Shown here one piece after another: positions 16,661-33,902 of a stretch of DNA of 64,000 nt. The stretch lies in the NCBI RefSeq assembly GCF_024223415.1, contig NZ_CP100500.1; one strand, written 5' to 3'. The notes under the pieces were generated by a model. It was not told the DNA's origin and did not search any database. It saw nothing but the letters and a program-made list of their open reading frames with translations. This DNA is from Escherichia coli (GTDB taxonomy: Bacteria > Pseudomonadota > Gammaproteobacteria > Enterobacterales > Enterobacteriaceae). Position numbers and translations under genes: made by a program. The stretch's first letter is position 1; each line of letters opens with the position of its first letter.

Positions 16661-16670
16661 TGCGCGTTCC

Positions 16671-17930
16671 TCAACCAATCCCCATGCTTTCAGCCAGTGC
16701 TTCCAGCGCCTGTTCAAAACACGCCAGCGGTGCCCGCACGGTGCCTGCGCCAATCTGCCCGATCCCCGCCTCTTTATGGGCGATACCGGTATTGATGAGT
16801 GGCGTAATGCCGGTTTCTACCACGCGACGAATGTCCAGTCCCAGGCACGCGCCCTGAAAATCCCAGCTTGGGATCTGCAACTGCATATTGCGTTCAAGGT
16901 AAATTTCCGCCATCTCTTCAGATACCGCCCTGGCCGCTTCCATGCCACCCGCACCGACAAAGCGCGTTACGCCAGGCGCTGCGATCATTGCCGCACCTCC
17001 GATACCAAAGGTTTCGGTAATCGCGCTATCGCCCATATCCGGGTTCGCCTGCTCCTGCGAGAAGCCGGTGAAAAACAGACCTTGCGGAGTGTTTACAGGC
17101 GCAGTAAACCAGCGTTCGCCCAGCCCGCTTACCCGAATCCCGAACATATTGCCGTTGCGGGTCATTGCCGTGACGATGCTGCCTGCGCGGATCATCGCGC
17201 CAGCATCCATCGCCGCCTTGCAGTAAGCCATCGCGAGGTTGAGGAAGAACTGATCGGTCACGCTGAGGAAATCCATCACTTCCGCGATGTGCTGTTTATC
17301 ATGATCGAGGCGAGCAATTTGTGGGGCCAGCGCACGCATTAACAGTGCTGAGGAAGCAATATTGCGTTGATGGAACTCATCGCCCATCGTAATGCCCTGC
17401 GCCATCATCGCAGTAAGATCGATACCGCGCTCCATGCGCCCCAGCGCCGCGCTTAATACTGGCATTAACACATCGCGCATCCAGCGATGGCGAGTCAGGA
17501 CATCTTCGCCGTAAGCGCCAAAACGCATCACTTTGCCGATACCTTCGTTGAGGTTGCAGTACGCCCGGTTGCCGTCGGTCACGTTCTCGACCACCAGCAT
17601 CGGCATACTGGCAGAAGTAATACCGCCCATTGGCCCGACGGCATTCACATGGTGACAAGGAATGAAGTTCACTTCCCCCAGATCCAGCATCGCCAGTGCC
17701 TGCGCTTCATCTTTCGCCCAGCCTTCAAACAGACATGCGCCCACGCACGCCCCTTTCATTGGCCCGGTCATCTCCTGCCAGCGCATTGGTGGCCCGGCGT
17801 GAAGCAGTGTTTTGCCCTGGTTTAACGCACTGATGAGTGAAGATGCTGGTTTAACATCCAGCCAGTGTGGACGAGCGCGACGAATTTGTTCGATAACCGC
17901 AGCATTGGCTTGCGCCACTGATGTAAACAT
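16671..17930 (-). CDS. ylbE: DUF1116 protein, intact 419 aa here (recalled as frameshifted in K-12)
   Basis: Single uninterrupted [21 protein letters not shown]... Confidence 0.85.
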
Positions 17931-17939
17931 GGGAACCCC

Positions 17940-19607
17940 TTATTGCAAACGTTCTAATAAACGAGCCAGTTTTTTATTGCCGCCGGCGACTGGCGCCCAT
18001 TGGTAATGCACCACCGGTTTGCTGGCGCTTTGTAGTTCCAGCGCAAAACTGCGTAATCCGATGTTAATCACGGCGACGTTTTCCAGTAATGACGGTGTGT
18101 GTTGCTGTGCGGCAGGCGAGAGCGGATGAATTAACGCTGCCGCCAGCAAGGTGGCTTCCGGTAGCGAACTCACGACCGCAATCCCCGCATCTTCCAGCGT
18201 GGCGATTTGCTGCGAGCGGCATTGCGGGTCACGTTCAGTGCCTGTCACCGTGGCAATGGCATACAGTGGTTGATTGTCTGAACGCGCAGCACAGGCTTTT
18301 TGCCAGGCGCTTACCAGCGAGGCGGCAGGATCGGCGGTCGCACCGAAGCCAATCACGACATCAAGCAGCAGCACACGCACTTGCGGTTTAGCGCCGAGAT
18401 CGGCAATTAACTGGTTGCGTAAGGTTGGGTCGATCATCGGATGGGGACGCCCGACTGTGTAGAAATCATCGCCGAGGTCAATAATCTGGTGACCATCGGC
18501 GTCGAGCATCATGCCGTGATGATGGGCATCATCGGCTTCCACGCCAAGGTGTCCGGCAAGTAATCCCGCCGCTTCGGCAGCCAGCGTACCGCCGGTATAC
18601 AAACCGCAAATAAATCCGCTGCTGGCAGGCGTTATCGCGTTACGTCGCGCCGTAACGCGTGAAAGCAGGCAAGCCAGGCGTGCGGCCTCATCCAGCGAGG
18701 AGGCAAACCAGACATTCTCGTCGCGGGCCACCGCCGGGGTATAACCTAAAAACAGCGCCACCGTCGGTTTGCCGGTTGCTTTCATGGCATTAACAATTTT
18801 CAGACGCACCGCTTCGGCAGGTGGTTTTGAAACAAATGCCAGCACTTCGCTTTTCTCGTCTGCACTGAGCATCTCCAGCGCCGTCAGCGCACTGATGCCG
18901 CCCACTTCACGGCTGAGGTCGCGGCCGCCAAGGCCAATCGCGTGAGTAATTCCCTCCCCTGCCAGCGCAATCTGCGAACACAGCTCCTGAATCCCGGTAC
19001 CGGAAGCGCCAATGACGCCAATATTGCCTTCCGGCATCACGTTAGCAAAAGCCAGCGGCGTGGCGGCAATCATCGACGTACCGCAGTCCGGCCCCATCAC
19101 CAGCAAGCCTTTTTCCCGCGCGCGGGTTTTAAGTTGGATTTCATCTTCCAGCGTGACGTTATCGGAGAACATCATCACGTTGAGGTTGCGATCCAGCGCC
19201 TGATTCGCCAGCTCCGCCGCATACTCGCCAGCCACTGAAATCAGCGCCAGATTGGCATCGGGTAATTTCTGACAGGCACTGTCCCAGCGACGCACCTGCG
19301 TCAACGCCTGGCTGCTGCCTGACCCCTGCGCCAGTTGTTTTAGCGCCTCTTCAAGCTGCTGCATAATCGCCTGCGCGATCCCCGCATCCGCCGCTTCGCT
19401 ACGAATTGCCACGCAAATATCGTTCGGCGTGGCGTTATTAAAATCGTCATGCCAGAAACCTGTGGTATCTAATAACGCTTTATTGGCGGGCGTACCCATC
19501 ATTACGGAAACATCATCAACATTTTCTGATTCGCTGAGTTTTCGTGAAATAATCATTAAACTGACCGAATCCTGAAAACACCCTTTTTTAATAAAGGCGT
19601 GGATCAT
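17940..19607 (-). CDS. fdrA: succinyl-CoA-synthetase-alpha-like (CoA-ligase fold) protein
   Basis: 555 aa, MIHAFIKKGCFQDSVSLMIISRKL. Confidence 0.9.
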   Translation of the reverse strand: MIHAFIKKGCFQDSVSLMIISRKLSESENVDDVSVMMGTPANKALLDTTGFWHDDFNNATPNDICVAIRSEAADAGIAQAIMQQLEEALKQLAQGSGSSQALTQVRRWDSACQKLPDANLALISVAGEYAAELANQALDRNLNVMMFSDNVTLEDEIQLKTRAREKGLLVMGPDCGTSMIAATPLAFANVMPEGNIGVIGASGTGIQELCSQIALAGEGITHAIGLGGRDLSREVGGISALTALEMLSADEKSEVLAFVSKPPAEAVRLKIVNAMKATGKPTVALFLGYTPAVARDENVWFASSLDEAARLACLLSRVTARRNAITPASSGFICGLYTGGTLAAEAAGLLAGHLGVEADDAHHHGMMLDADGHQIIDLGDDFYTVGRPHPMIDPTLRNQLIADLGAKPQVRVLLLDVVIGFGATADPAASLVSAWQKACAARSDNQPLYAIATVTGTERDPQCRSQQIATLEDAGIAVVSSLPEATLLAAALIHPLSPAAQQHTPSLLENVAVINIGLRSFALELQSASKPVVHYQWAPVAGGNKKLARLLERLQ

Positions 19608-20973: not shown

Positions 20974-20994
20974 TTATTGAGACAGGACTTTCTT

Positions 20995-22230
20995 ATGATT
21001 ACACATTTTCGTCAAGCCATAGAAGAAGCGCTGCCCTGGCTTTCCTCATTTGGCGCTGACCCAACGGGTGGGATGACCCGTTTACTTTATTCGCCGGAAT
21101 GGCTGGAAACCCAGCAGCAATTTAAAAAAAGAATGGCCGCAAGTGGGCTGGAAACACGTTTCGATGAAGTGGGGAATTTATACGGTCGCCTGAGTGGCAC
21201 CGAATATCCACAGGAAGTGGTTCTGAGCGGTTCGCATATCGATACCGTGGTTAACGGCGGTAACCTCGACGGGCAATTCGGCGCGCTGGCGGCGTGGCTG
21301 GCAATTGACTGGCTGAAAACTCAATACGGCGCACCGCTGCGTACGGTTGAAGTGGTGGCGATGGCGGAAGAAGAAGGCAGCCGCTTCCCGTATGTTTTCT
21401 GGGGCAGTAAAAATATCTTTGGGCTGGCGAATCCTGACGACGTGCGGAATATCTGTGATGCCAAAGGAAATAGTTTTGTCGATGCGATGAAGGCTTGCGG
21501 ATTTACTCTGCCGGACGCCCCGCTAACTCCGCGTCAGGATATTAAAGCCTTTGTCGAACTGCATATCGAACAGGGCTGTGTGCTGGAAAGTAATGGGCAA
21601 TCAATTGGCGTGGTGAATGCAATTGTCGGGCAACGTCGCTATACGGTGACGCTGAACGGCGAATCAAACCATGCAGGCACCACGCCGATGGATTATCGTC
21701 GTGATACGGTTTACGCTTTCAGTCGCATTTGCCATCAGTCGATCGAAAAAGCGAAAAAGATGGGCGACCCGCTGGTGCTGACCTTTGGTAAGGTGGAGCC
21801 GCGCCCGAATACGGTGAATGTGGTGCCGGGTAAAACCACGTTCACCATTGATTGTCGTCATACCGACGCCGCCGTGCTGCGTGATTTCACCCAACAGTTA
21901 GAAAACGACATGCGGGCGATTTGCGATGAAATGGACATTGGTATTGATATCGATTTATGGATGGACGAAGAACCCGTGCCGATGAATAAGGACCTGGTCG
22001 CCACCCTGACAGAATTGTGTGAAAGTGAAAAACTGAATTACCGGGTGATGCACAGTGGTGCCGGGCACGACGCGCAAATTTTCGCGCCTCGCGTGCCGAC
22101 CTGCATGATTTTCATTCCCAGCATCAATGGGATCAGCCATAACCCGGCGGAACGCACCAATATTACCGACCTTGCCGAAGGGGTCAAAACGTTGGCACTC
22201 ATGCTTTATCAACTTGCCTGGCAGAAATAA
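20995..22230 (+). CDS. allC: allantoate amidohydrolase
   Basis: 411 aa from MITHFRQAIEE, M20 peptidase family. Confidence 0.95.
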   Translation: MITHFRQAIEEALPWLSSFGADPTGGMTRLLYSPEWLETQQQFKKRMAASGLETRFDEVGNLYGRLSGTEYPQEVVLSGSHIDTVVNGGNLDGQFGALAAWLAIDWLKTQYGAPLRTVEVVAMAEEEGSRFPYVFWGSKNIFGLANPDDVRNICDAKGNSFVDAMKACGFTLPDAPLTPRQDIKAFVELHIEQGCVLESNGQSIGVVNAIVGQRRYTVTLNGESNHAGTTPMDYRRDTVYAFSRICHQSIEKAKKMGDPLVLTFGKVEPRPNTVNVVPGKTTFTIDCRHTDAAVLRDFTQQLENDMRAICDEMDIGIDIDLWMDEEPVPMNKDLVATLTELCESEKLNYRVMHSGAGHDAQIFAPRVPTCMIFIPSINGISHNPAERTNITDLAEGVKTLALMLYQLAWQK

Positions 22231-22237: not shown

Positions 22238-22249
22238 TAAATGGGATAT
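22238..22249 (+). repeat. left copy of the attachment core/target duplication TAAATGGGATAT
   Basis: Matches 33891-33902 (TAAAAGGGATAT) at 11 of 12 positions. GGGATAT is identical in both. Confidence 0.8.
22241..22249 (+). other. allE: orphaned first three codons of allE (ATG GGA TAT), cut off from the gene body by the satellite insertion
   Basis: The SD GGAG and ATGGGATAT follow the allC stop exactly as in the uninterrupted arrangement. Reading continues into island DNA and stops after 12 codons. Confidence 0.8.
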
Positions 22250-22322
22250 ATCTATAACTTATTTTCAATAAGGTATTGATTTAATTAAACAACTTACACT
22301 ACAAAAAGTGCCAAAAATCGCA

Positions 22323-22348
22323 AATTAACTACACCATTAACTACACCG
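22323..22348 (+). repeat. 26-bp island-internal direct repeat AATTAACTACACCATTAACTACACCG (itself a tandem ATTAACTACACC x2), left copy
   Basis: Identical copy at 33743-33768. Imperfect similarity extends about 50 bp further. Confidence 0.85.
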
Positions 22349-22645
22349 TTCGGCGCACTGTATGAAACAACGTGGAACAAATAGGCACAAGAAATATAAA
22401 GGCGGGTAATTTTAAGGGGGCGTTGCTGTCGATACGGGGATCCACATATCGAGATTGATACCTGGCTTTTTTTCCGGTTAACCTTTAATCAGGCTGGTGG
22501 GCTTTACCTGTTCTGTAGGAGTGGTCATTATGACCATTCAGCCAATGACCTTAATCAGAATTTTTCGCTAAAAAATGACGTTGGCCACGTCATCCGGAAA
22601 GCACAAAATCACGTCGATTTTTAATGGATGGTTAAACCGTCTTTT

Positions 22646-22681
22646 TGTCACGGTGTGTCACTGGTTGTCACGCTCTGTCAC
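22646..22681 (+). repeat. four TGTCAC motifs spaced exactly 10 bp apart
   Basis: TGTCAC starts at 22646, 22656, 22666 and 22676, so the copies are phased by one helical turn. Confidence 0.8.
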
Positions 22682-22693
22682 GATGTCCGGCCT

Positions 22694-23044
22694 CCTCACA
22701 TTGAGGATTGTGGAAGAATCAATGGGTTAGTCTTACTACCCAAACTACGGGTAGTTTCCGTAGTTTCATGGTCGAGTTGCAGATCTGCAACTCCCCCATC
22801 AACCACAGGCGAATTTCCGCCTTCGGTCATTCCTTAATCATCTGCGTAATCATAATGATTATTCAGCCACCTCAATTTTGAGGTTTGCTTTAAGTTCAGC
22901 GAGTTACCGCGCCGACTTCCTCAAATTGAGGTTTCCGAAAATATCAGTGGGTTAGCGATTAAGCTGACCATTAATTAAACTGCGAAAATTTCGTAGTTTG
23001 TGACTGTCTTTCAGGCAGCTTGTTATCAGTCCTCAGATGTGAGG
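22694..23044. promoter_or_regulatory. four dispersed palindromes CCTCA-N3/4-TGAGG
   Basis: Located at 22694-22706, 22870-22883, 22919-22931 and 23031-23044. A perfect 20-bp palindrome GAGTTGCAGATCTGCAACTC lies at 22774-22793. Confidence 0.7.
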
Positions 23045-23087
23045 GATGTAGCCAGCGCAATTTTGCGTTATCGGGAATATCAGCAAG

Positions 23088-23369
23088 TTACCGCCGTAAC
23101 CGTTCCGGCTTCTTCCACTGATAAGTGTTTTTCGCGCTCTCCTGATACATCGCCACGCGTCGACGGTATGCCAGCAACTCTAGTACTCTGATTCGTATGT
23201 CGCGCATATCCACGCCGTTAAGCTCAATACCATCACGGCGCATTACATCAGCAACAACACGCACGTAATTTTCGGCGATCACGCTGTCCGGCTGCGTGGC
23301 CTGTTCGTCATGCTGCTGGCTGATTCCGGTAACGCGGCGGATTAATCCCAGTAGTTCGGCTTCTGTCAT
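23088..23369 (-). CDS. hypothetical 93-aa satellite protein
   Basis: ATG preceded by GGGGGC. No family recognised. Lies just beyond the left cos copy. Confidence 0.55.
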   Translation of the reverse strand: MTEAELLGLIRRVTGISQQHDEQATQPDSVIAENYVRVVADVMRRDGIELNGVDMRDIRIRVLELLAYRRRVAMYQESAKNTYQWKKPERLRR

Positions 23370-23402
23370 TGTGCCCCCATCGCTCTGATAGTCTGGTGTC
23401 GT

Positions 23403-23466
23403 CGGGTCCTTCTGGAATTATGGCCCGTTACGGGGCGTCGACCTCGCGGTTTTTCGCTATTTATGA
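23403..23466 (+). repeat. lambda-type cosQ-cosN sequence, left copy (12-mer GGGCGTCGACCT at 23433-23444)
   Basis: CGGGTCCTT..GTTACGGGGCGTCGACCTCGCGGTTTTTCGCTATTTATGA matches the lambda cos junction ..GGGTCCTTTCCGG..GTTACG/GGGCGGCGACCT/CGCGGGTTTTCGCTATTTATGA (from memory). Confidence 0.8.
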
Positions 23467-23480
23467 GCTTTTTTAGAGGG

Positions 23481-23631
23481 AGGTTGTTGTTTAATTGTTT
23501 GTCATATCCATTTGATAACTAAGTAAAAATAAAGAGCAATACAACAACCTGATAGTGTTTTTTTGATGCTAAAAATAAAAAAATACTAATTGAATCAAAT
23601 AGTTTTAAAAAAATACGTGGTTGTTGTATTG
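23481..23631 (+). promoter_or_regulatory. cosB-like region: three GGTTGTTGT(A/T)TT sites in + - + orientation separated by A-tract DNA
   Basis: Sites at 23481-23497 (+), 23537-23550 (-) and 23618-23631 (+). Their order and orientation mirror lambda R3-R2-R1. Confidence 0.6.
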
Positions 23632-23661
23632 CGTATTTGATGGCGTAACAGAAAGTGATTT

Positions 23662-24102
23662 TTAACTTTGCTGTTCTGTAACGACTGATTGTTCCATGCT
23701 GGCACGGCGAACGCTTACGGCATGACGCCACCCAGCCAGAAAGCCAGCCATTTTATTTCGTGCCTTGCTCACATCTTCCGGTGAATAGCCGTAAATATGC
23801 AAACCTTCATCAAATCGCTGTTCTGTTTCTTCACTGAAATACTCGTCGCGCTCTGACGCAATCAACCTGGCAACCATAATCTTTTCCAGTGCGCTGGTTT
23901 CTCCGTGGTACTCAATAGCATCAAGATGGCTTTTACCCATGCACCAGAATAATGTGTGTCCGATGTGATAACCGCCGGACTTTCCGCGATCCGCATCAAG
24001 ATATGGCATGCCCTGTTTGGTCCATGCGCGAATAGTGGTTCTGTTGACCTTGAAATGTTCTGCTATTTCCTGCTGACTCACAAAACAAGCTTTATCAATC
24101 AT
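23662..24102 (-). CDS. Nu1-like winged-HTH protein (small-terminase N-domain homologue; candidate packaging-redirection protein)
   Basis: VSQQEIAEHFKVNRTTIRAWTKQGMPYL aligns with lambda Nu1 VNKKQLADIFGASIRTIQNWQEQGMPVL. The C-terminal half is unrelated to Nu1. Confidence 0.7.
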   Translation of the reverse strand: MIDKACFVSQQEIAEHFKVNRTTIRAWTKQGMPYLDADRGKSGGYHIGHTLFWCMGKSHLDAIEYHGETSALEKIMVARLIASERDEYFSEETEQRFDEGLHIYGYSPEDVSKARNKMAGFLAGWRHAVSVRRASMEQSVVTEQQS

Positions 24103-24169
24103 AATGTTACCTTAATCATGCGATTAAATGTTAATCAAGTGGTGGTGGTGTCACCTTCACGGAAAAACG

Positions 24170-24234
24170 TCATAAATAGCGAAAACGCGCGAGGTCGACG
24201 CCCCGTAACGGGTCCACATGCCGGAAAGGACCCG
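24170..24234 (-). repeat. lambda-type cosQ-cosN sequence, right copy, inverted (12-mer at 24192-24203)
   Basis: The reverse complement CGGGTCCTTTCCGGCATGTGGACCCGTTACGGGGCGTCGACCTCGCGCGTTTTCGCTATTTATGA matches the left copy and lambda cos. Confidence 0.8.
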
Positions 24235-24235
24235 C

Positions 24236-24258
24236 AAAAAAAGCCGGATTTCTCCGGC
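24236..24258 (-). terminator. intrinsic terminator after orf137
   Basis: On the minus strand, the GCCGGAGAAATCCGGC hairpin is followed by a U7 run, 7 nt after the stop codon. Confidence 0.8.
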
Positions 24259-24264
24259 CTTGTC

Positions 24265-24678
24265 TCAGATGGTTTTCAGTATGCGATCGATGTCGCCGTC
24301 ATCGCCCTGGTTTGTGCCATCGTATGCCATGCCAGCTGATACGGCTTTCGGGCTGTGCATGTCCATAAAGTTTTCAAAGGCTGAAGTAAGCTCTGGTGCA
24401 ACCTTCGGGCGTTCCTGCTCTATGGTCATGCTAAGGATGCTTTTAGCCGTACCAACATCGATACAAGGCACGTTAGCCATTGCACGTAACAGCGGCTGGT
24501 AGTCGTCAGATTCATGAAGCGCCATAATCGCATCAGCGCGCGGCTTGTCCTGTTCTTCCAGTTTGTTGAGTCGGTGTATGGCCTCGTAGGTTGATAAACC
24601 TCTGTCAGCCATTGCCCGCGCTTCGGCTTTAAATTTACTCGCCAGCGGTAGCTTCATGATACTTTCATTCGTTGCCAT
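24265..24678 (-). CDS. hypothetical 137-aa head-module protein
   Basis: Strong SD AGGGGGAA. Tightly packed after the decoration gene. No family recognised. Confidence 0.6.
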   Translation of the reverse strand: MATNESIMKLPLASKFKAEARAMADRGLSTYEAIHRLNKLEEQDKPRADAIMALHESDDYQPLLRAMANVPCIDVGTAKSILSMTIEQERPKVAPELTSAFENFMDMHSPKAVSAGMAYDGTNQGDDGDIDRILKTI

Positions 24679-24690
24679 CGTTCCCCCTGC

Positions 24691-25026
24691 TTATCGTGCC
24701 AGCGGCTGAACGGATACGCCGGAACCCGCAAAGGCGGCGCATTTTTTCGCATCGGTGTCGACGCTATCAGGCCAGTTAACGGCGGCAATATTGAATATCC
24801 CCGTTTTGTAACACTGTGCTGATTTCTGCTTTGACGTGTCCACGGGGTGCGAAGTCAGATAAACAGCTTTGCCAGATTCCTGACCATCCCACGCCTTAAA
24901 CTCGCCATTGTCTGCCAGCATCAGCGGGGTAAATTCCTGAATAACGCCAGCATCAGCGGCAAAATGTACCAGCGTCGTGGATACCTGCTGGCTGCCTGAA
25001 AATAACTCAATGTATGGAGCGTCCAT
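24691..25026 (-). CDS. head decoration protein, lambda gpD-like
   Basis: 111 aa. TPLMLADNGEFKAWDG and KKCAAFAGSGVSV align with gpD TPLMLDTSSRKLVAWDG and KKRTAFAGTAISIV. Confidence 0.8.
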   Translation of the reverse strand: MDAPYIELFSGSQQVSTTLVHFAADAGVIQEFTPLMLADNGEFKAWDGQESGKAVYLTSHPVDTSKQKSAQCYKTGIFNIAAVNWPDSVDTDAKKCAAFAGSGVSVQPLAR

Positions 25027-25037
25027 AGAATCCCCCG

Positions 25038-26093
25038 TTAAGCAATTTTGACGGTAACAAATTTGCGAATATCTGCCGGTACCGGCTGCGGTGCGCTGTG
25101 CGTCTGCACGTACTCAATCGCCGGATCGCCGTCCTCAATCCAGTTTTTCGGGTAGTACATGTTTTGCGTTGCGCCCGTTCTTACCGCTTCCTGATCCATA
25201 ATCGCACCATATGCCACCAGCCCTTTATTGTTGGTGTTACCCAGGACCAGCAAATCAGGCTCAAGGAAATATTTTTCGGTGCCGTCGCTGTCAGTGTATT
25301 TGCCGGAATAGACGATAAGGGCCAGATCACCAAGATAGCCTTTAAAGCTCACCACTTCGCCCAGGTTTTTACAGGCCAGCTCGGCGGCGGATTCTGACCC
25401 ACGGGAAAGATCGTACAGTTCACGGAATTTTTTAAAGCTGCGTAATGTGCGCCATACCTCACCGCCCATAATCATGACGTTGGCGGGGCAACCTGCCTGA
25501 TCAGCATAAAGCTCGATGTCATAGATTGGGTCGTGCATGTCTTTATCCTGCTGGGACCATTTTTTACCACTGGCCTGCTGTATGATGCAGTTTTCCGGTA
25601 TTTTCCAGTCGATTTCATAGCGTTCTATGCCTTCGCCCTCAATGATGTTTTTTCCGGTCGTTACCGCATTCACCGCCAGCCATTCAACACGCGCTTTAAT
25701 GGCGTTTACCTGGCGGCGCATGTTGCCAGTAATCAGGCGCATACGGCGATAGGTTGGGTCGTTAAGCTGTGCCGGATCTTCTCCAGCCATGCGCATGATG
25801 GTCTTTGTTGGATCGATTTCGTGCTTTGGCTTCATGTAGCCTGGTTTAATCGTGCTGGTTTCGTACCCTTTATCGCGCTGGACCTGACTACCCACCATAG
25901 GAGAACAGAACGCAGACATCGTAACCTCTTCAATGTCCAGGGTGTCCAGCATGATGTTTTGGGTGTTGAAGGTCGCCACGTTCGGGAAAAACAGCGTGGT
26001 AAACAGCGGACTAAATTTAAATTCCGAAATATCCCCGCGATTCAGGTACGCGAAAAGCTGGTTAGTTGTAAGTGCCGTTGCTTTGCCTGTCAT
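25038..26093 (-). CDS. major capsid protein, lambda gpE family
   Basis: 351 aa. KFSPLF, PGYMKPKHE, YPKNW and HSAP align with gpE KFDPLF, PGYVKPKHE, YPKNW and QSAP. SD GGAGGTG, with a TAATG overlap with the upstream ORF. Confidence 0.9.
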   Translation of the reverse strand: MTGKATALTTNQLFAYLNRGDISEFKFSPLFTTLFFPNVATFNTQNIMLDTLDIEEVTMSAFCSPMVGSQVQRDKGYETSTIKPGYMKPKHEIDPTKTIMRMAGEDPAQLNDPTYRRMRLITGNMRRQVNAIKARVEWLAVNAVTTGKNIIEGEGIERYEIDWKIPENCIIQQASGKKWSQQDKDMHDPIYDIELYADQAGCPANVMIMGGEVWRTLRSFKKFRELYDLSRGSESAAELACKNLGEVVSFKGYLGDLALIVYSGKYTDSDGTEKYFLEPDLLVLGNTNNKGLVAYGAIMDQEAVRTGATQNMYYPKNWIEDGDPAIEYVQTHSAPQPVPADIRKFVTVKIA

Positions 26094-26299
26094 TATTCAC
26101 CTCCGTGAACCTGATTGATACCCAGCGCCGCACGTAAATAGGTGCGCACCTGCCAGCCTGTTGACGGCTCAACCATCGCCAGCGGATCAAGTCCTGCCGC
26201 AATGCCTGCTTTTACATTCTGCTGGTGGCGTTCCTTGAGCGCCTCCACGATGTCGGGGCTTATGTAGACCGTCACCCCGCCTTTTTTCTCTTCTGCCAT
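26093..26299 (-). CDS. hypothetical 68-aa protein, first gene of the capsid operon
   Basis: Translationally coupled to the capsid gene. No family recognised. Confidence 0.55.
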   Translation of the reverse strand: MAEEKKGGVTVYISPDIVEALKERHQQNVKAGIAAGLDPLAMVEPSTGWQVRTYLRAALGINQVHGGE

Positions 26300-26332
26300 A
26301 GTCAGAAATTCCTCTTTGACTTAAAAAATCAT

Positions 26333-26383
26333 AACTGGATGTTCATCCAGTCCTGATTATAATCATGATTGCATTTTGTGCAA
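26333..26383 (-). promoter_or_regulatory. sigma70 promoter of the capsid operon (TTGCAC-16-TATAAT) with an overlapping LexA-like palindrome
   Basis: On the minus strand, the -35 is at 26378-26383 and the -10 at 26356-26361. AACTGGATGTTCATCCAGTC (26333-26352) has CTG-N10-CAG and starts 5 nt after the -10. Confidence 0.6.
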
Positions 26384-26466
26384 TAATGTTGAGTTGTGTT
26401 GCAAATTATGAAATGATTATCCCGATCATGTGTGTCAGTGCACCATAAAAAACCTCGTATACAAAA

Positions 26467-26504
26467 GCCCGATAAGCCCCCTGTGACCTTATCGGGCTTT
26501 TTTT
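26467..26504. terminator. hairpin GCCCGATAAG..CTTATCGGGC with T7 on the plus strand and UUUUGU on the minus strand (bidirectional)
   Basis: 10-bp stem flanked by A/T runs. Confidence 0.7.
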
Positions 26505-26510
26505 AGGCGT

Positions 26511-26532
26511 AAAAAAGCCGGATTGCTCCGGC
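26511..26532 (-). terminator. intrinsic terminator after the PerC-like gene
   Basis: On the minus strand, the GCCGGAGCAATCCGGC hairpin is followed by U6. Near-identical to the terminator at 24236-24258. Confidence 0.8.
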
Positions 26533-26539
26533 TGTGTGC

Positions 26540-26812
26540 TCACTTCTGCGGGTAGTTGCGCCATATTGCTTTGCCAATACCAGCTATCCCCATTTGTTTT
26601 TCAGTGCGATTAACTGACCTTTTCAGAGCGCCTAAATCATCCGGCGGCTCCGGTGGCCTCTGTGCCTTCCGTGAACATTCCAGCCGTCGCATTGCCACCT
26701 GTGCGCGTTCCTTGTCTGTCTCCACCAGCATCATCACTTCACCCCATCGCGCGGCCGCCCTCCGGTAAAATCCTTTCGCCTCCAGTTCCTCCGCTATCCG
26801 GTCATGTACCAT
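26540..26812 (-). CDS. PerC/Pch-family transcriptional activator-like protein
   Basis: 90 aa from MVHDRIAEELEAKGFYRRAAARWGEVM, with SD GAGGGGG. The motif resembles PerC-family A..LE..GLWRRAA.RW (from memory). Confidence 0.55.
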   Translation of the reverse strand: MVHDRIAEELEAKGFYRRAAARWGEVMMLVETDKERAQVAMRRLECSRKAQRPPEPPDDLGALKRSVNRTEKQMGIAGIGKAIWRNYPQK

Positions 26813-26822
26813 CGTCACCCCC

Positions 26823-27233
26823 TCAGAACGGAATATCATCACCGTAAGGGTCATCGCCTCCCGCTGGTGGCTGATTACCCTGTGTGCCTGTGGTTTTGCG
26901 TCTGTTCCCGCCAGGACGTGCCGCACGGGCACTGATTACGCTGTCTGCGATGACCTGCCAGCCCTGCCGCGTTTCGCCGTTCTGGCCTGTCCACTGGCTT
27001 ACCTGCATGTTACCCGCCACGCTCACCAGTTCGCCTTTGTGGTGTCTGGCCAGTGCGTCGGCCTGTCTGCCAAACGCCAGGACGGATAACCACATCGTCG
27101 CCGTTCCGTCATCTGCCTGGCTGCATGGCAGGGGAACCGCCATACTCGCCATCGCCATTTGTGTCCCTTTGCTGGTCTGTTTTGTCTGCGGGTCGTCCAC
27201 CAGCCGCCCGTAAGCCGCTATCTGTGCTGTCAT
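26823..27233 (-). CDS. ssb: single-stranded DNA-binding protein
   Basis: 136 aa with an OB-fold-like N-terminus, a Gly/Pro-rich linker and the canonical acidic tip DDIPF. Confidence 0.85.
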   Translation of the reverse strand: MTAQIAAYGRLVDDPQTKQTSKGTQMAMASMAVPLPCSQADDGTATMWLSVLAFGRQADALARHHKGELVSVAGNMQVSQWTGQNGETRQGWQVIADSVISARAARPGGNRRKTTGTQGNQPPAGGDDPYGDDIPF

Positions 27234-27487
27234 GCTGTCTGCTCTCCGGTTTTAACATTGATGGTTGTCACCTGTTCCGCTCCGGCAATCTCCCGCTCTG
27301 TCAGCGTGGCAAAGTTTGCCGCCGTCGTTGTCATGAATGCGCTTATCAGTTCGGGATGTGCTTTCGCGTATCCTTCCCCCGTGTTGCGGTCGATGATTTT
27401 TATCGCCACCCTCAGCCAGTGCTCTGTAAGGTCAATGGCGCGGTTATGTGATTTCTTCTGATTGTTAAATTTTTCTGATGTGTGCAT
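27230..27487 (-). CDS. hypothetical 85-aa protein
   Basis: ATGA overlap with the ssb start. No family recognised. Confidence 0.5.
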   Translation of the reverse strand: MHTSEKFNNQKKSHNRAIDLTEHWLRVAIKIIDRNTGEGYAKAHPELISAFMTTTAANFATLTEREIAGAEQVTTINVKTGEQTA

Positions 27488-27534
27488 TTTTATTTTTACC
27501 CCCTCGTTTAAAAAGTTTTGAGTTGTGGTGCACC

Positions 27535-27760
27535 TCCTCTACCTCTCTACACAATCATCTTTCAGGTCAGTAATGGCGCGGCTTTCAGCGGGGTAGAGGG
27601 CTTTTTTGGCCCTCTACCCGCCATCTACCACCCCCTCACAAATGCCCTGAATTATGGTAGAGGGTGTAGAGGGCTTTTAAGTACCTTCTACCTGCCATCC
27701 ACCCAATCTATCCACATGAAATATATGTAATTATTTTCTTAAGGTAGAAGGGGTAGAGGG
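27535..27760. repeat. iteron array, at least 10 copies of (G/T)GTAGA(G/A)GG in both orientations; candidate satellite replication origin
   Basis: Includes GGGTAGAGGGC-ttttttg-GCCCTCTACCC (27590-27618), GGTAGAGGGTGTAGAGGGC (27655-27673) and GGTAGAAGGGGTAGAGGGC (27742-27760). Lies directly downstream of the primase-helicase gene. Confidence 0.7.
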
Positions 27761-27773
27761 CTTTTGTCTAAAA

Positions 27774-29522
27774 CTATAAAAACGCGTCGCAGTCGTCTGT
27801 TGTTGTCACGTTGGTTTGCGTAAACCCTTTAATCCTGCGCGTTATATATTCATGACCGTAAACTTTCGCCGCTGGCTTCATGGCCTTGCTGAACTCAGCC
27901 ACGTTCAGCGGTTTGCTCCTGCCTGCATACGCCATAAACGCCAGATAGACGCGGTAAAGGCTGTTTCTGGTCGTGTACTTCACTGAATCGCCACCGCCGC
28001 CCATCATCAGGCCACGTGCTTCCTCCAGAAAATTCAGGAACTGGCAAAACTCAATAACCGGATCCGTCTGTTGCTTTATTGCCAGAGCTTCATCACCGTC
28101 TCGCTGTTCAATGAGTAAAGCCCGTGCCTTTTCAGGGTCGGCAAAGTTCGCCAGCAAGCGGCGGATAATGACAGGGATTTCAGCCGCGATCTTTTCCGGT
28201 AGCTCCCTGTCTTTTTCTGCCTCGCTTACGATGTTATCGAACCGGAATATCACCCGACGACGTGACACGCCTCCTGCCCGTTCGGTGAATATCATCGGGT
28301 TATTATTGGTTGCCAGCACAACCGCCCTGATTACCGCCGTGAATCGCTTTTCATATTTCGGGTTGATTTCCACGGGGTCGCCGCCCGTGATTTTCTTGAT
28401 GCCCGTTCCTTCGCCTGTATATTTCGGCTGGTCTGCCAGGACAATAAGCCTACTCCCGACAACCTGCGCACGCCCACCAGCATCATCAAGCGATGTCATC
28501 TCAGCGCTTACCGTGTTCTGTTTCCCTGCCAGAAGGCTGGCTATGTGTGTGAATGTACTTTTACCGCTCCCGCCGTCTCCGGTGGCCTCAATAAACATCT
28601 GCCAGTCGTACCGGTTCGCCATAATCATGTACAGCGCGGCACATATACGCATCATCTTGCGCGGGTCTTTTCCGGCAGCGTGATCAAGCCATTTATGAAA
28701 GTTTGGCGCGTTGTCGCGGATATTCTCACCTGGTACTGGCGGCGTGTACTCAATGCCGTTGTGTGTGGTGATCCAGTTCTCCGGCGTGTGCGGGGAAAAT
28801 TCCCCCGTTTTCAGGTCAAGCGCACCATTGGCGAACGGCAGCAAATCGCCGGACGGCTCGCCCATTGGTTCGGCAATAACTTTTAACGCTTCCACGGCGT
28901 TACTGATTACGCGCTTGCTGAAAGTGGCCCTGTGCTCTGAATAGATCGCCACCATTTCGCGGCTCAGTTCCATTGTGCTGACCGGACACCATACCCCGCC
29001 GCGCCATACGTGAACGATTTCACTTTCCAGATGCACACAAACGCCATCAAATCGACCAGCAAGCATCTGTGCGCGCTCACTGTCTGCCATTTGTGCCAGT
29101 TGCGTATTTTTCTGCTCCGGCATGGTAAGCCCTGCGGCAATATTTTCACGCTCAGCATTCAGATAGCGCCGCCAGTTTTCACACTTCTGACCGTGCATTC
29201 CTTCAGAGTAAAAATTCGCATCCTGAATATCTGCCGCCGCCAGCTTCTGACCAATCTTTTTGGTCTCCACTAAATCCAGTTCTCCGGCCTGGTACAGCCT
29301 TACGCGTTTTTTTCCATCCGGAACAATTTTCAGCGCATCAAGTTCAGCAAGCTGATTTGGCCCAAGCCACACAGGCGGCACATTATCGCCGGATGCGGGA
29401 CCGTCCTTCTCCTGCCACTGTTGTGCATGCGACCAGGCATCACTACCCGCAAAGATAATTACCTCTGTGTCTTTGTGTTTTATTCCGCGTGGCTGTTTTT
29501 TTACGTTCGGTGCCAGTTTCAT
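27774..29522 (-). CDS. P4-alpha-type primase/SF3 helicase (replication initiator)
   Basis: 582 aa with Walker A GDGGSGKST and a D5_N/P4-family C-terminal layout. Confidence 0.85.
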   Translation of the reverse strand: MKLAPNVKKQPRGIKHKDTEVIIFAGSDAWSHAQQWQEKDGPASGDNVPPVWLGPNQLAELDALKIVPDGKKRVRLYQAGELDLVETKKIGQKLAAADIQDANFYSEGMHGQKCENWRRYLNAERENIAAGLTMPEQKNTQLAQMADSERAQMLAGRFDGVCVHLESEIVHVWRGGVWCPVSTMELSREMVAIYSEHRATFSKRVISNAVEALKVIAEPMGEPSGDLLPFANGALDLKTGEFSPHTPENWITTHNGIEYTPPVPGENIRDNAPNFHKWLDHAAGKDPRKMMRICAALYMIMANRYDWQMFIEATGDGGSGKSTFTHIASLLAGKQNTVSAEMTSLDDAGGRAQVVGSRLIVLADQPKYTGEGTGIKKITGGDPVEINPKYEKRFTAVIRAVVLATNNNPMIFTERAGGVSRRRVIFRFDNIVSEAEKDRELPEKIAAEIPVIIRRLLANFADPEKARALLIEQRDGDEALAIKQQTDPVIEFCQFLNFLEEARGLMMGGGGDSVKYTTRNSLYRVYLAFMAYAGRSKPLNVAEFSKAMKPAAKVYGHEYITRRIKGFTQTNVTTTDDCDAFL

Positions 29523-29818
29523 TTTTTACCCCTGAATACGTTAAGCATCTTTTTTATTTCCTGAATATTGGCGCGTGCTTTCTCCCTGCTGGTTGGTTTA
29601 CTGCGGGGCGCTGCCTGTACCAGAGAAAAATCACGCCGGAACTGATAAACAGGCATCACGCAATCATATTCGTAGCCTTCACGGCGGTAAGTGATGCGCC
29701 GTTCCTCCACGCCTTTAATCGTTACCGTGCCGCCGTACTGGTCGCGGTAAATATCGCCGTTCATAAATTCAGGCCGAGCGGGGCCGCTGGCATTAACGCC
29801 AGTATTTTTCATTCCCAT
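29519..29818 (-). CDS. hypothetical 99-aa protein
   Basis: ATGA overlap with the primase start. Basic C-terminus. Confidence 0.55.
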   Translation of the reverse strand: MGMKNTGVNASGPARPEFMNGDIYRDQYGGTVTIKGVEERRITYRREGYEYDCVMPVYQFRRDFSLVQAAPRSKPTSREKARANIQEIKKMLNVFRGKK

Positions 29819-29822
29819 ATAA

Positions 29823-30065
29823 TTAAATTCCGTTTGTGTGGTGTTTTAATTCGTCAATTTTTTCTAATGCTTTGTTTATCTTGCTGGTGGAAATATCCAG
29901 CAATTCAGAAATAGCAAATATAAGTCTTGCCGTTGATTCATCTCTTTCGTTGTTTGACAGCAATTGAAACCACACGTTTGTAATTTCAATTGCCGAATTA
30001 TTATAGGTTATTGCACTGTTCATGTATTCCGACACCTCTGCAAGCGAAAGTTTATTATTCTCCAT
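29823..30065 (-). CDS. hypothetical 80-aa protein (AT-rich)
   Basis: Predicted helical, with markedly lower GC than its neighbours. Confidence 0.5.
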   Translation of the reverse strand: MENNKLSLAEVSEYMNSAITYNNSAIEITNVWFQLLSNNERDESTARLIFAISELLDISTSKINKALEKIDELKHHTNGI

Positions 30066-30246
30066 AACGTTCTACCCTCTCATCAATTAACCACAGTGCA
30101 ACACTTCCTGACAGTCTTGCCAGAAGGCCAGCTAATGCGGATATATCATCATCATTTAATTTATTAGGGTACGCTTCAAGAAGTCTGCAAATAATTTCGG
30201 TTTGGTGGGCGCGTTCAGCGGCTTCGTGTAATGTAATTTCCTTCAT
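30055..30246 (-). CDS. hypothetical 63-aa protein (AT-rich)
   Basis: Overlaps the next ORF by 11 nt. Confidence 0.5.
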   Translation of the reverse strand: MKEITLHEAAERAHQTEIICRLLEAYPNKLNDDDISALAGLLARLSGSVALWLIDERVERYGE

Positions 30247-30431
30247 TAATGCACCTCTTTTAATTCATACACTGCTGAAATAATGACTTGTGATAAGCCA
30301 TATTCTGATGATTCGCTTCTCACCGCAGCAATAGCCGTCTGAACATTAACAGCCTTCACATTCTGAGCGATACCAATTGTGTGGCCTAGTGGGTTAACAG
30401 CTCGGGCAAATACACGGAAGGTTTTAAGCAT
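30246..30431 (-). CDS. hypothetical 61-aa protein
   Basis: Its start overlaps the upstream stop, and its own stop overlaps the next start by 1 nt. Confidence 0.5.
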   Translation of the reverse strand: MLKTFRVFARAVNPLGHTIGIAQNVKAVNVQTAIAAVRSESSEYGLSQVIISAVYELKEVH

Positions 30432-30789
30432 GGCGCACCCCCTGAATAACCTGATATCCGCAACTGGTCAGCAATTCGATAAATTCCGGCAGAGTGCCAA
30501 AACAGCAATCAGTGCGTAGCTGTTCGCAGGATACCTCAACGCCGTTTTCGTAATGGCTCACTATGCGCCCGGTAAAATGCGGATCATCATCGTGATGGCA
30601 CGTTGACGGTTTCATCAGCCGCGCGCGTTCCGCCAGTTCCAGCAATGCTTCAACGCTTCCGGCAATTGCACCATCCGGCAGGTGATAATTACTTACTACG
30701 CGTCCATTCTCTACATTGACCAGTAGCTGTCCGGTAAATTTCTCACGAAACTGAACGCGGTTAAGATCGGTAAGTGACAGGTTAATCAT
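30424..30789 (-). CDS. hypothetical 121-aa protein
   Basis: Start MINLSLTDLNR, chosen because ATGATTAA overlaps the upstream stop codon. Confidence 0.55.
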   Translation of the reverse strand: MINLSLTDLNRVQFREKFTGQLLVNVENGRVVSNYHLPDGAIAGSVEALLELAERARLMKPSTCHHDDDPHFTGRIVSHYENGVEVSCEQLRTDCCFGTLPEFIELLTSCGYQVIQGVRHA

Positions 30790-30979
30790 GGCACACCTCC
30801 TGACGAATACGGGCGGCGAATACAGCGACACAACCGGACGGGCAACGGTTACGCGCTTCGCGTTCTGTCCAGGCGGTCACGTGGATAATTTGAGATTCTC
30901 CGGCACTCAGTGCCAGAAAACGCCACACAAAGGCGGTTTGTGTGTGCGCAAGGCGTGGGGTATGCTGTGTTCCAGCCAT
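30782..30979 (-). CDS. small Icd-like (P4-family cell-division-inhibitor-like) protein
   Basis: 65 aa MAGTQHTPRLAHTQTAFVWRFLALS...TEREARNRC...FAARIRQE, with SD GAGGT. The family call is from memory of P4-like prophage annotations. Confidence 0.4.
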   Translation of the reverse strand: MAGTQHTPRLAHTQTAFVWRFLALSAGESQIIHVTAWTEREARNRCPSGCVAVFAARIRQEVCHD

Positions 30980-31070
30980 AATCGTTACCTCAATTAATGG
31001 TTTGGTTAGAAGCCCGTTGGTGTTCATAGCGCCAGCGGGCTTTGTCTTTTCATCGATTACCTCAATAAAG

Positions 31071-31151
31071 GTGTCAGCCACTATACTAGTAACAGGTGTC
31101 AGCCACGTCAATAGTGTTTTTCCATTTTCTTGTGTGTATACTGTCAGCCAC
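31071..31151. promoter_or_regulatory. divergent control region with three (G/C)TGTCAGCCAC repeats interleaved with TATACT -10-like hexamers
   Basis: Copies at 31071-31081, 31096-31106 and 31141-31151. TATACT at 31082-31087 and 31137-31142. Confidence 0.65.
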
Positions 31152-31172
31152 CTAATAACAAGGAAATCAGAT

Positions 31173-31352
31173 ATGGCAACGAAAGCAGTTAATGGAAAAT
31201 CCAAAAAACTTGAGGCACGAGTCCCCCATGCAATAGCTGACGCTTTAGAAAATTTAAAGGAAGAAGGCGAAAGCACTGGGCAATTTATCGTTTCGGCACT
31301 TGAAGGCGAGATCAAACGCCGCCAGCGCCGGAAGGCCAAAGAATCAGAATAA
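31173..31352 (+). CDS. ribbon-helix-helix (Arc/MetJ/CopG-like) DNA-binding protein, candidate satellite repressor
   Basis: 59 aa. KKLEARVPHAIADALENLKEEGESTGQFIVSALEGEIKRRQ fits a beta-strand/helix/helix pattern. Divergent from the early operon. Confidence 0.6.
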   Translation: MATKAVNGKSKKLEARVPHAIADALENLKEEGESTGQFIVSALEGEIKRRQRRKAKESE

Positions 31353-31409
31353 TCACTATCAGCGCCGTGGTGTGAGGTACTGCGGCGCATTGTTTTAAAG
31401 GTGATAATT

Positions 31410-31601
31410 ATGAATAACCAAGAACTACAAAATAAAGCATTATCAATTATCATGCGCCAGCGTGAGAAAACCCGCAGGGAAATAAATAAGGCATTAACCC
31501 GCACTGAAAATCTTAAAGTTCCTGATAAGTTCGCCCTTGATCCTTTTGTCGAGAAATACCCTCGGCGCTTAAAAGCAAACAAAAACCGCCCACCTGGCTG
31601 A
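31410..31601 (+). CDS. hypothetical 63-aa basic protein
   Basis: ATG with SD AAGGTG. Followed by an intrinsic terminator. Confidence 0.5.
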   Translation: MNNQELQNKALSIIMRQREKTRREINKALTRTENLKVPDKFALDPFVEKYPRRLKANKNRPPG

Positions 31602-31635
31602 CAATCCACCAGCAAGCCAGGACACTGATCACATT

Positions 31636-31663
31636 GGCCACCGTGACAGGTGGCCTTTTCTTT
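31636..31663 (+). terminator. intrinsic terminator of the rhh operon
   Basis: GGCCACC-gtgaca-GGTGGCC followed by TTTTCTTT. Confidence 0.8.
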
Positions 31664-31716
31664 GCCCGTTATCCGGCAATTGTGGCGCTTCGCCACACGG
31701 TTGATATAATCCCACT

Positions 31717-31787
31717 GCTCATATTCATTTTTTGCGCAGTAGGTTAATTGTTCAGAAAGGCGGCTCCTTATCGGGGCCGCTTTTTTT
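31717..31787 (+). ncRNA. candidate ~70-nt small RNA, antisense to the alpA-early operon transcript
   Basis: An extended -10 TGATATAAT (31702-31710) lies upstream of an 8-bp-stem hairpin plus T7 (31760-31787). There is no credible plus-strand CDS between them. Confidence 0.35.
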
Positions 31788-31928
31788 ATGTCTGAAAAAC
31801 CGCGATTTTGTTGTTTTTCAGTTTCACAAGGCCGAACGAAGCCCCGCCCCTGTTCGGGCGTATATCCAGTCTTCATGGTTAAATCTCTGTATTAGTGGAT
31901 GGGTGGCGGCTGTGTGCCGCCAGTCTTT

Positions 31929-32117
31929 TTAGTGAACTGCCTCGCAGCTTTCCTTCCATGCCAGAACTTCGGATAAAGACCAGCCAACGGAACGACCGCC
32001 CAGCTTACGCCGTGATGGGAATTGTCCGGCCTTTTCCAGGCGGTAGCGGCATGAGCGGCTAAGCCCTGTTAGCTTTTCGCATTCTTTTTCACGTATAAAC
32101 CGATCAGTGCTTAACAC
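31929..32117 (-). CDS. alpA: AlpA-family HTH regulator/excisionase-like protein
   Basis: 62 aa, GTG start with SD AAAGGGGG. The LTGLSRSCRYRLEKAGQFPSRRKLGGRSVGWSLSEVLAW motif is typical of AlpA. Confidence 0.85.
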   Translation of the reverse strand: MLSTDRFIREKECEKLTGLSRSCRYRLEKAGQFPSRRKLGGRSVGWSLSEVLAWKESCEAVH

Positions 32118-32409
32118 TATTGCCCCCTTTCGTTTCTTAAAGAGTTATTTCGTGTTCTATTGCGTTGGTATGTGTCTGATTGTGTCAGGGTGATTCAGAG
32201 TTGGCAAATGTTGGTGGCGGGTATTTTACAGAAACGGGGTTATTTTAATAAAAAACATTTTAATTCAGTATTATGCAAAGGCATAAAATCTCGTTTTATG
32301 CCTTTTTTCTCACTATTTAAAGCGTTATTCGCTAATGTATAAAAAACCAGTTGAGCATTAAAAATCAGCAACTTATAAATCTGTATACTTTTTGGCCTCT
32401 TGTTCGTGG

Positions 32410-32443
32410 TTGTTTCACGTTGTTGCGTATTGTTTCACGTTGT
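32410..32443 (+). repeat. two direct copies of TTGTTTCACGTTGT, 20 bp apart
   Basis: The same 13-mer family occurs inverted near both island ends (22364-22379 and 33787-33800). Confidence 0.75.
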
Positions 32444-32491
32444 ATCTGTGCACTTATCCAGTATGCGCATACTGAAAAAACACGAAAAAAA

Positions 32492-33742: not shown

Positions 33743-33768
33743 AATTAACTACACCATTAACTACACCG
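33743..33768 (+). repeat. right copy of the 26-bp repeat, immediately upstream of the integrase start
   Basis: Identical to 22323-22348. Candidate integrase arm-type or RDF binding site. Confidence 0.85.
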
Positions 33769-33890: not shown

Positions 33891-33902
33891 TAAAAGGGAT
33901 AT
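33891..33902 (+). repeat. right copy of the attachment core TAAAAGGGATAT
   Basis: See the left copy. The allE reading frame resumes inside this repeat. Confidence 0.8.

Follow-up and report, generated by a model that had tools for sequence, protein, structure and literature searches.

In this study, we analysed a stretch of 64,000 nucleotides (nt) from Escherichia coli (contig NZ_CP100500.1 of assembly GCF_024223415.1), hereafter the window, together with an original prediction about its content that a model had made from the letters. The window is E. coli chromosome, with argU and the sfm fimbrial genes at one end, rhsD at the other, and purEK and the allantoin region between them. An island of 11,646 bp (22250–33895, minus strand) lies between its left neighbour allC (20977–22230) and its right neighbour allE (33954–34679). 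We are highly confident that this island is a classical Rpp-type Gram-negative phage-inducible chromosomal island (PICI) of the EcCICFT073 family. Beside its packaging gene rpp the island carries a block of four shell genes, three of which encode relatives of phage lambda head proteins, and the possible role of this shell kit is the second subject of this paper.

The four shell genes and rpp are the five open reading frames (ORFs) that had been placed here by the original prediction, and all of them are found at the predicted coordinates on the minus strand. The first gene of the kit (26093–26299) encodes a protein of 68 amino acids (aa) that belongs to phrog_3255, and its stop overlaps the start codon of the capsid gene. 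The predicted structure of the 68-aa protein consists of a short N-terminal beta-hairpin and two helices, with a predicted local distance difference test (pLDDT) score of 77, and this model gave no significant fold match. The second gene (25038–26093) encodes a gpE-family major capsid protein of 351 aa. Residues 26–349 match Pfam Phage_cap_E (PF03864) with 173 bits against a cut-off of 22.9 (E = 1.1e-50), and an alignment of 343 residues with lambda gpE shows 43% identity (E = 6e-93). The protein also matches the lambda capsid chain 7VI9 (E = 1.3e-81) and, at approximately 96% identity, PDB entry 3BQW (E = 3.5e-230), which is a structural-genomics structure of a CFT073 "putative capsid protein of prophage". 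The gpE homology that had been read from short motifs was thus confirmed; the pair PGYMKPKHE/PGYVKPKHE, the YPKNW motif and the SAP C-terminal region all lie in the gpE alignment. The third gene (24691–25026) encodes a gpD-family head decoration protein of 111 aa. The proposed gpD homology was borne out by Pfam HDPD (lambda gpD, PF02924; E = 2.2e-17, 63.7 bits against a cut-off of 29.1) and by the alignment with lambda gpD (36% identity, E = 5e-12), and the protein also matches PDB entry 1TD0 (1e-12), which is annotated merely as a head decoration protein. The orthologues of these three genes in E. coli CFT073 are c1498, c1499 and c1500, respectively. That of the fourth gene is c1501; the locus tags c1498 and c1501 were mapped to the 68-aa and 137-aa proteins by gene order.

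The fourth gene (24265–24678) encodes a protein of 137 aa, which had been proposed as one of two candidates for a scaffold. Its match to the head-maturation-protease family phrog_53 lies at the very C-terminal end (positions 495–568 of 583, E = 5e-8), and the protein also matches the last 80 or so residues of the C/Nu3 protein of PhiR12_2_star (tblastn, E = 2e-4). When the profile of the 137-aa family was compared with a small set of Nu3 proteins, hhalign gave a probability of 96% (E = 4e-9) and a shared FE-FM--HSP-AV--G motif. The link with Nu3 comes from these profiles, because the single-sequence BLASTP comparison with lambda Nu3 was not significant. No PDB sequence match was obtained for this protein, and word-indexed and exhaustive searches with it returned almost only E. 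coli PICI copies. Its predicted structure is all-helical with a disordered tail (pLDDT 64), which is too weak for a fold search. As judged from the profiles, this protein corresponds to a Nu3-like scaffold domain and lacks a protease domain, so the earlier guess of a scaffold is supported. Because the 137-aa protein is Nu3-like, the block can be regarded as a coherent kit of scaffold, coat and decoration proteins. A terminator-like stem-loop with a T-run (24237–24263, minus strand) lies directly 3' of the 137-aa gene; it was found by reading the sequence and by a repeat search and was not listed by the terminator scan.

The kit is preceded by a conserved, putative control region (26300–26540, minus strand). 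Two tandem terminators stand after the perC gene, and they are followed by a promoter-like site (TTGCAC-16-TATAAT) that is overlapped by a dyad (ATTGCA-N5-TGCAAT). Before the ribosome-binding site there is a perfect hairpin (ACTGGAT-N4-ATCCAGT) with a T-run (26352–26333). The 240 bp upstream of the kit have a mean column identity of 92% among five PICIs. This architecture suggests that the kit is under separate, conditional control. The hairpin region could be a leader terminator that needs antitermination, or it could be an operator.

The gene rpp (23662–24102) encodes an RppA-type protein of 146 aa with an N-terminal winged helix-turn-helix (wHTH) domain like that of lambda Nu1. Residues 2–125 align with residues 2–127 of RppC (PDB 6HLK, E = 1.7e-32), and the protein is 89% identical over 144 residues to RppA of EcCICFT073 (144 aa), so that the homology takes in the C-terminal part that serves dimerisation and TerS binding. 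The alignment shows that T23 and W27, the DNA-contact residues proposed in PMC6739421, are both kept. The similarity to lambda Nu1 covers residues 8–47 against Nu1 residues 3–39 only (35% identity, E = 5e-5), and the match to the small terminase family phrog_57 is likewise confined to the N-terminal domain. The prediction that this protein shares only the wHTH domain of Nu1 therefore held, with approximately 40 N-terminal residues aligned; homology to full-length Nu1, including the C-terminal half that binds the large terminase (TerL), was not found in the 146-aa protein. On these alignments we identify the 146-aa protein as Rpp. Given this identity and the flanking cos sites, it would bind the small terminase (TerS) of a helper and redirect packaging to the island cos, as in EcCICFT073. 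The dN/dS (nonsynonymous to synonymous substitution) ratio of rpp is 0.16.

Two 64-nt inverted arms lie on either side of rpp, and each holds a lambda-like cosN, GGGGCGTCGACCT, of which 0 matches are expected by chance. The first arm is at 23410–23473 (plus strand, cosN at 23432–23444), and the second, upstream of rpp, is at 24163–24226 (minus strand, cosN at 24192–24204). EcCICFT073 is arranged likewise, and the pair in the window corresponds to its published cos1 and cos2. These two cos sites of EcCICFT073 are both functional, with a lambda-like cosN and a different cosB (PMC6092414). In E. coli NRZ105019 (NZ_OZ501674.1), positions 1783–2535, compared with window 23410–24226, carry rppA flipped between the cos arms. 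The flipped gene encodes the same protein (WP_000565609.1), and CFT073 and the window share the other orientation. The rppA segment apparently inverts through recombination between the 64-nt arms.

The ends of the island were set by comparison with the uninterrupted allC–allE spacer of E. coli SCU-316. The match between the chromosome and this empty site ends at 22249 and restarts at 33890. The comparison reveals a 7-bp target duplication, GGGATAT, with its left copy at 22243–22249, at the junction beside allC, and its right copy at 33896–33902. The empty site gives the island as 22250–33895, so that the predicted size of 11,646 bp was exact. A 26-bp direct repeat, AATTAACTACACCATTAACTACACCG, is found inside the island ends at 22323–22348 (plus strand) and 33743–33768, approximately 75 bp and 130 bp in from the ends, and these exact repeats extend to 75 bp at 79% identity (22323–22397 and 33743–33817). 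We considered whether the repeats at 22323 and 33743 were the att cores, which would give an island of 11,420 bp. This was ruled out because the empty site puts them inside the island. The same 26-bp repeats occur inside both ends of EcCICFT073, whereas the short target duplications differ (GGGATAT in the window island, AAATATGTCC in CFT073), as do the chromosomal targets. The repeats are probably arm sites of the integrase and not the crossover core, and the integrase seems to tolerate different core sequences. Between the left island end and the next gene, the spacer of approximately 740 bp at 22350–23088 contains no convincing gene and no Rfam match and is longer than its CFT073 counterpart; it may be an accessory or cargo slot. 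The Rfam scan of the island as a whole found no RNA family. Outside the island, an ORF of 1164 aa (49281–52775) lies in a stretch with 62–67% G+C between flanks of approximately 40% G+C. From its position beside the allantoin region on the K-12 map, we take this ORF to be probably the rhsD core.

The other island genes, all on the minus strand, form the backbone of a PICI. A tyrosine integrase identified by Pfam (32492–33742) and an AlpA-family regulator or excisionase (31929–32117; phrog_2790, 1.3e-17) are encoded side by side. They are followed by a primase-replicase with D5_N, DUF5906 and Pox_D5 domains (27774–29522). Directly downstream of the primase gene, three iterons (copies of GGGGTAGAGGGCTTTT, 27590–27765) form a putative replication origin, in agreement with the position of the PICI origins described in PMC6092414. 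A single-stranded DNA-binding protein (SSB; 26823–27233, Pfam SSB 1.7e-15) and a PerC-family regulator (26540–26812) are encoded between the origin and the kit. The PerC match (Pfam, 1.7e-38) covers residues 41–129 of a 130-aa ORF. The protein probably starts at M41, and annotated homologues have 82–90 aa. A conserved 93-aa gene of phrog_1561 lies downstream of rpp (23088–23369); it is 78% identical to its CFT073 counterpart, with a dN/dS of 0.15–0.26.

Some ORFs of the island call for a decision on whether they are genes. The original prediction had rejected a 364-aa ORF (30782–31876) as a shadow. The ORF is mostly spurious, as had been said, but its final 60–90 residues or so match the repressor families phrog_1743 and phrog_6196, and it appears that a short real repressor-like gene ends at 30782. 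Apart from the ORFs it had named, the prediction had also allowed no ORF longer than 146 aa. Antisense shadow ORFs of 236 and 191 aa do exist inside the primase and capsid genes, but neither is a gene. The predicted absence of a large terminase, portal, protease and tail genes stands: neither these nor lysis genes were matched by any island ORF in the Pfam and PHROG scans, which were read together with the ORF list.

Taken together, the island has a tyrosine integrase at one end with a 7-bp target duplication and a known empty site, an AlpA-type regulator beside int, its own primase-replicase followed by three iterons as a putative origin, a gene for a capsid homologue (Pfam Phage_cap_E) and a small-terminase-like packaging gene, which is Rpp. 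It has no tail, lysis, portal or large terminase gene, and its 11,646 bp fall within the range of about 10–20 kb. In PMC10085698, the five core components of PICIs include "capsid morphogenesis" and "small terminase", and elements with the complete set of five are reported from E. coli. Since int, alpA, the primase gene with its iterons, the capsid gene and the TerS-like gene are all present, the window island has the five, and under the SatelliteFinder scheme it would fall into 'Type A'. A defective lambdoid prophage was ruled out by the size, by the backbone of integrase, AlpA, primase and origin, and by the identity with EcCICFT073.

At the DNA level the island is 89% identical to EcCICFT073 over 79% of the length. 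Thirteen island proteins are 72–95% identical to those of EcCICFT073 and stand in the same order, while two small ORFs and a YlcI-like ORF are more divergent. The identities are 93%, 95%, 94% and 93% for the 68-aa, gpE-like, gpD-like and 137-aa proteins, and 89%, 85%, 89%, 95% and 94% for Rpp, SSB, primase, AlpA and integrase. The original prediction had seen in this island an intermediate, minimal design distinct from Rpp PICIs. This contrast was mistaken because the island has the gene set of a classical PICI: its 146-aa protein is Rpp, and a characterised family with exactly this gene set, EcCICFT073, is recognised by synteny and 89–95% identity. EcCICFT073, the prototype of the type, is explicitly labelled a "classical" PICI in the preprint on capsid-forming PICIs (cf-PICIs; bioRxiv 10.1101/2022.09.08.507074). 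The profile searches otherwise agree with the prediction in placing the shell proteins in the gpE and gpD families and the 146-aa protein with the Nu1-type wHTH. The island is thus a rediscovery, and its capsid-like, decoration-like and Rpp genes were already described in 2018–2019. Earlier publications on EcCICFT073 cover its gene set, the mechanism of Rpp and both cos sites, and they show that the capsid genes are dispensable. The present analysis adds the Nu3-like assignment, the two cosN sites in inverted repeats, the selection on the kit, its spread and its distance from phage capsids.

The mechanism has been shown for the orthologue EcCICFT073, and we carry it over to the window island from the 89–95% identity and the identical anatomy. 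A lambdoid cos helper would induce AlpA, and the island would excise by its own integrase and replicate from its own primase and iteron origin. A dimer of Rpp would then capture the N-terminal domain of the helper small terminase. The resulting Rpp–TerS heterocomplex would no longer recognise the phage cos and would instead recognise the island cosB beside the lambda-like cosN, so that the large terminase, proheads and tails of the helper would package island concatemers. Four units make 46.6 kb, approximately 96% of the length of lambda, and would fill a helper-sized head. In EcCICFT073, the Rpp wHTH is like that of lambda TerS, and Rpp forms a heterocomplex with the N-terminal domain of TerS, through which the island cos is recognised (PMC6739421, Mol Cell 2019).

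The remaining question is the role of the shell kit, and the first evidence on it comes from conservation. The dN/dS is 0.06–0.16 for the capsid gene (about 0.1, with copies at dS up to 0.35), 0.05–0.22 for the decoration gene, 0.2–0.6 for the Nu3-like gene and 0.13–0.44 for the 68-aa gene. The four-gene module is under purifying selection. In a set of 80 IMG/VR contigs, the 68-aa gene was full-length in 79, the capsid gene in 80, the decoration gene in 78 and the Nu3-like gene in 69. A query with the operon matched 711 of the 5,426 complete E. coli genomes, most of them at 90–95% identity over the four shell genes, so that the kit itself is carried by several hundred of these genomes. Island copies are 92–100% identical to one another, and most of the IMG/VR contigs with such copies are no longer than 15 kb, whereas in 50,697 phage records no phage coat was more than 47% identical to the island coat. 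These comparisons characterise the kit as an old, maintained satellite lineage and not as a recent pick-up. They also bear on the idea that the shell genes are remnants of a lambdoid head module that are in decay and have no current function. Such decay would fit the lack of any phenotype across three published studies of the orthologue and the frameshifts in some copies. It is contradicted by the capsid dN/dS of about 0.1 at dS up to 0.35, by the full-length copies in 79, 80, 78 and 69 of the 80 contigs and by the 92% conservation of the upstream control region, and we hold it to be extremely improbable.

Further evidence comes from experiments with EcCICFT073. In PMC6092414 (ISME J 2018), c1499 was named a putative capsid protein and c1500 a head decoration protein, and deletion of either gene neither restored lambda plaquing nor lowered transfer; c1499 had no phenotype. 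When the genes of EcCICFT073 were expressed singly, only c1503 (RppA) blocked lambda, and deletion of c1503, which is required for packaging of the island, restored lambda plaques (PMC6739421). These results concern the suggestion of the original prediction that the shell homologues act as dominant-negative poisons of helper head assembly, which would be an interference or defence function. A precedent is SaPIbov5 Ccm, which, as it is cited in PMC6092414, is a capsid homologue that redirects helper assembly. Co-assembly is also plausible, given the 43% identity between the coat of the island and lambda gpE. The idea nevertheless proved negative in the orthologue: lambda plaquing remains blocked when c1499 or c1500 is deleted (PMC6092414), and the singly expressed gene that reduces plaques, and whose deletion restores them, is c1503 alone (PMC6739421). 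The search with PADLOC found no defence-family match for the shell-kit proteins and only a weak match of rpp to mad1, confined to the helix-turn-helix (E = 9.5e-5). We therefore regard a poisoning function as very unlikely.

The kit of the orthologue is dispensable for transfer mediated by lambda, by phage 80 and by a CFT073 prophage, and c1499 and c1500 are dispensable for interference with lambda. An EcCICFT073 derivative in which c1498–c1501 had been replaced by cas9 was still transferred by phage 80 (PMC10530653). According to PMC10111431, 21 of the 29 Gram-negative reference PICIs have a capsid gene, which is not needed for transfer. In the papers that we found, no function was assigned to the capsid, decoration or Nu3-like genes of any PICI. 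A core role of the kit in mobility seems unlikely. The locus-tag order indicates, however, that the published marked derivatives of EcCICFT073 (c1501::tetA, c1499::cat and c1498–c1501::cas9) would all disrupt the kit, so that capsid size may never have been assayed with the kit intact. The helpers tried in the published transfer work were limited to lambda, phage 80 and a single CFT073 prophage.

The original prediction had described the island as a minimal capsid-former, which would build shells of its own scaffold, coat and decoration proteins around the helper portal, would take the protease, large terminase and tails from the helper, and would be packaged as monomers in small heads or as tetramers in full-size heads. 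Several of the above results are in line with it. The kit is a coherent scaffold–coat–decoration set, it is under strong purifying selection and nearly always intact, and a conserved promoter and leader region of its own precedes it. The finding that no phage capsid comes closer than 47% identity points to an old satellite lineage, and, by gene order, every published marked EcCICFT073 would have a disrupted kit. Against it, the orthologue was transferred by three helpers without c1499, c1500 or the whole of c1498–c1501 (PMC6092414, PMC10530653), and the island has neither portal nor protease. All EcCICFT073 DNA packaged by lambda was phage-sized (PMC6092414), which also speaks against it. We consider a minimal capsid-former of this kind rather unlikely. 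To a similarly low degree, we entertain the idea that with the right lambdoid helper the kit assembles heads of satellite protein, or chimeric heads, on the helper portal. The right helper would perhaps belong to the phage 21/PhiR12 lineage, whose coat and C/Nu3 C-terminus are the nearest phage relatives. The published negatives leave such chimeric heads standing because the assayed derivatives were, by gene order, interrupted or replaced in the kit and because few helpers were tried.

Our best guess is that the kit has a conditional, helper-specific role in head assembly and that it supplements or replaces the helper shell with some helpers. We prefer such a role to poisoning, which is contradicted by the experiments with the orthologue, and to decay, which is contradicted by selection. 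Three points weigh against our reading of the island and its kit. Occasional copies of the kit are frameshifted in the decoration or Nu3-like gene, which shows that an element does not immediately disappear when its kit is lost. No helper prophage was seen in the 64-kb window. Moreover, induction, TerS binding, packaging and the identity of the helper are attributed to the window island by analogy with EcCICFT073.

The capsid gene belongs to the five markers by which PICIs are defined, and the kit remains a loose end: it is widespread, selected and provided with its own control region, and experiments have revealed no phenotype of it. If the kit builds or modifies heads with particular helpers, it would form a link between classical and capsid-forming satellites. 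If the chimeric heads exist, Rpp-type PICIs would be the missing link that leads from capsid-hijacking to capsid-forming PICIs. A role of the kit in heads, if true, would also be relevant to the engineering of PICIs as delivery vehicles, from which the kit block is now left out.

Comparison with other islands shows which parts of this element are exchanged. Three sibling islands, in E. coli O145 RM9467 and O157 644-PT8 (both at phoQ) and in A33 (near tRNA-Ile), carry the same kit at approximately 92–94% DNA identity and the same cos arms. Their rpp slot holds a 180-aa Nu1-like small terminase, 36% identical to full-length lambda Nu1, instead of Rpp (1854–2396 in loci L004 and L005, 1855–2397 in L006). 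Their replication module is a RepA helicase, whereas the window island has a primase. Among the 80 contigs, the packaging slot holds an RppA-type gene in 18 and a homologue of the full-length 180-aa Nu1 type in 38. From these alignments, Rpp and TerS can be described as alternative cassettes beside one conserved shell block. In E. coli AR_0085 (8256–19571), a PICI in the same allC–allE site has a late module that is 99.1% identical and a RepA-helicase replicon in place of the primase. This PICI is an example of modular mosaicism between the replication half and the packaging half.

Among the known satellites, P4 resembles the window island in its integrase, AlpA-like regulator, D5/P4-alpha-type primase and dependence on a helper for virion proteins. 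P4 remodels the capsids of P2 with Sid and Psu, and to our knowledge it has no capsid-protein homologue. The Pfam and PHROG scans of the island proteins found no match to Sid, Psu, Delta or Epsilon. Similarly, SaPIbov5 is a cos-packaged staphylococcal PICI with a homologue of the helper major capsid protein, Ccm. In contrast to the island gene, which is unrelated in sequence, Ccm has a demonstrated role in small-capsid formation and helper blocking; the orthologue of the island gene had no such role with lambda (PMC6092414).

Like the window island, the cf-PICIs, with EcCIEDL933 as prototype, reside in E. coli, have the backbone of int, alpA and a replication gene and encode a major capsid protein of their own. 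They differ in that they also encode a protease, portal, head–tail connectors, HNH, and small and large terminases, and in that they form their own small capsids. In the window island, no ORF or family match was found for a large terminase, portal, prohead protease or head–tail connector or adaptor. Phylogenies also set the capsid genes of PICIs apart from those of cf-PICIs (PMC10085698). EcCIEDL933 was rejected as a name for the O157 sibling island because it denotes the cf-PICI prototype. Another relative, 11capE (PMC10111431), is an 11-kb Gram-negative PICI with its own gpE-family capsid gene and with a size and gene order like those of EcCICFT073. 11capE is integrated in the capsid gene E of its helper prophage, whereas the window island is intergenic and has no prophage around it.

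EcCICFT073 itself sits between phoQ and roxA, unlike the window island between allC and allE, and it differs in several small genes between the primase gene and alpA. The two islands have in common their gene order, which is the same from int as far as the 93-aa gene, a size of about 11.4–11.6 kb, an inverted pair of lambda-like cos sites around rpp and the internal 26-bp repeats near the ends.

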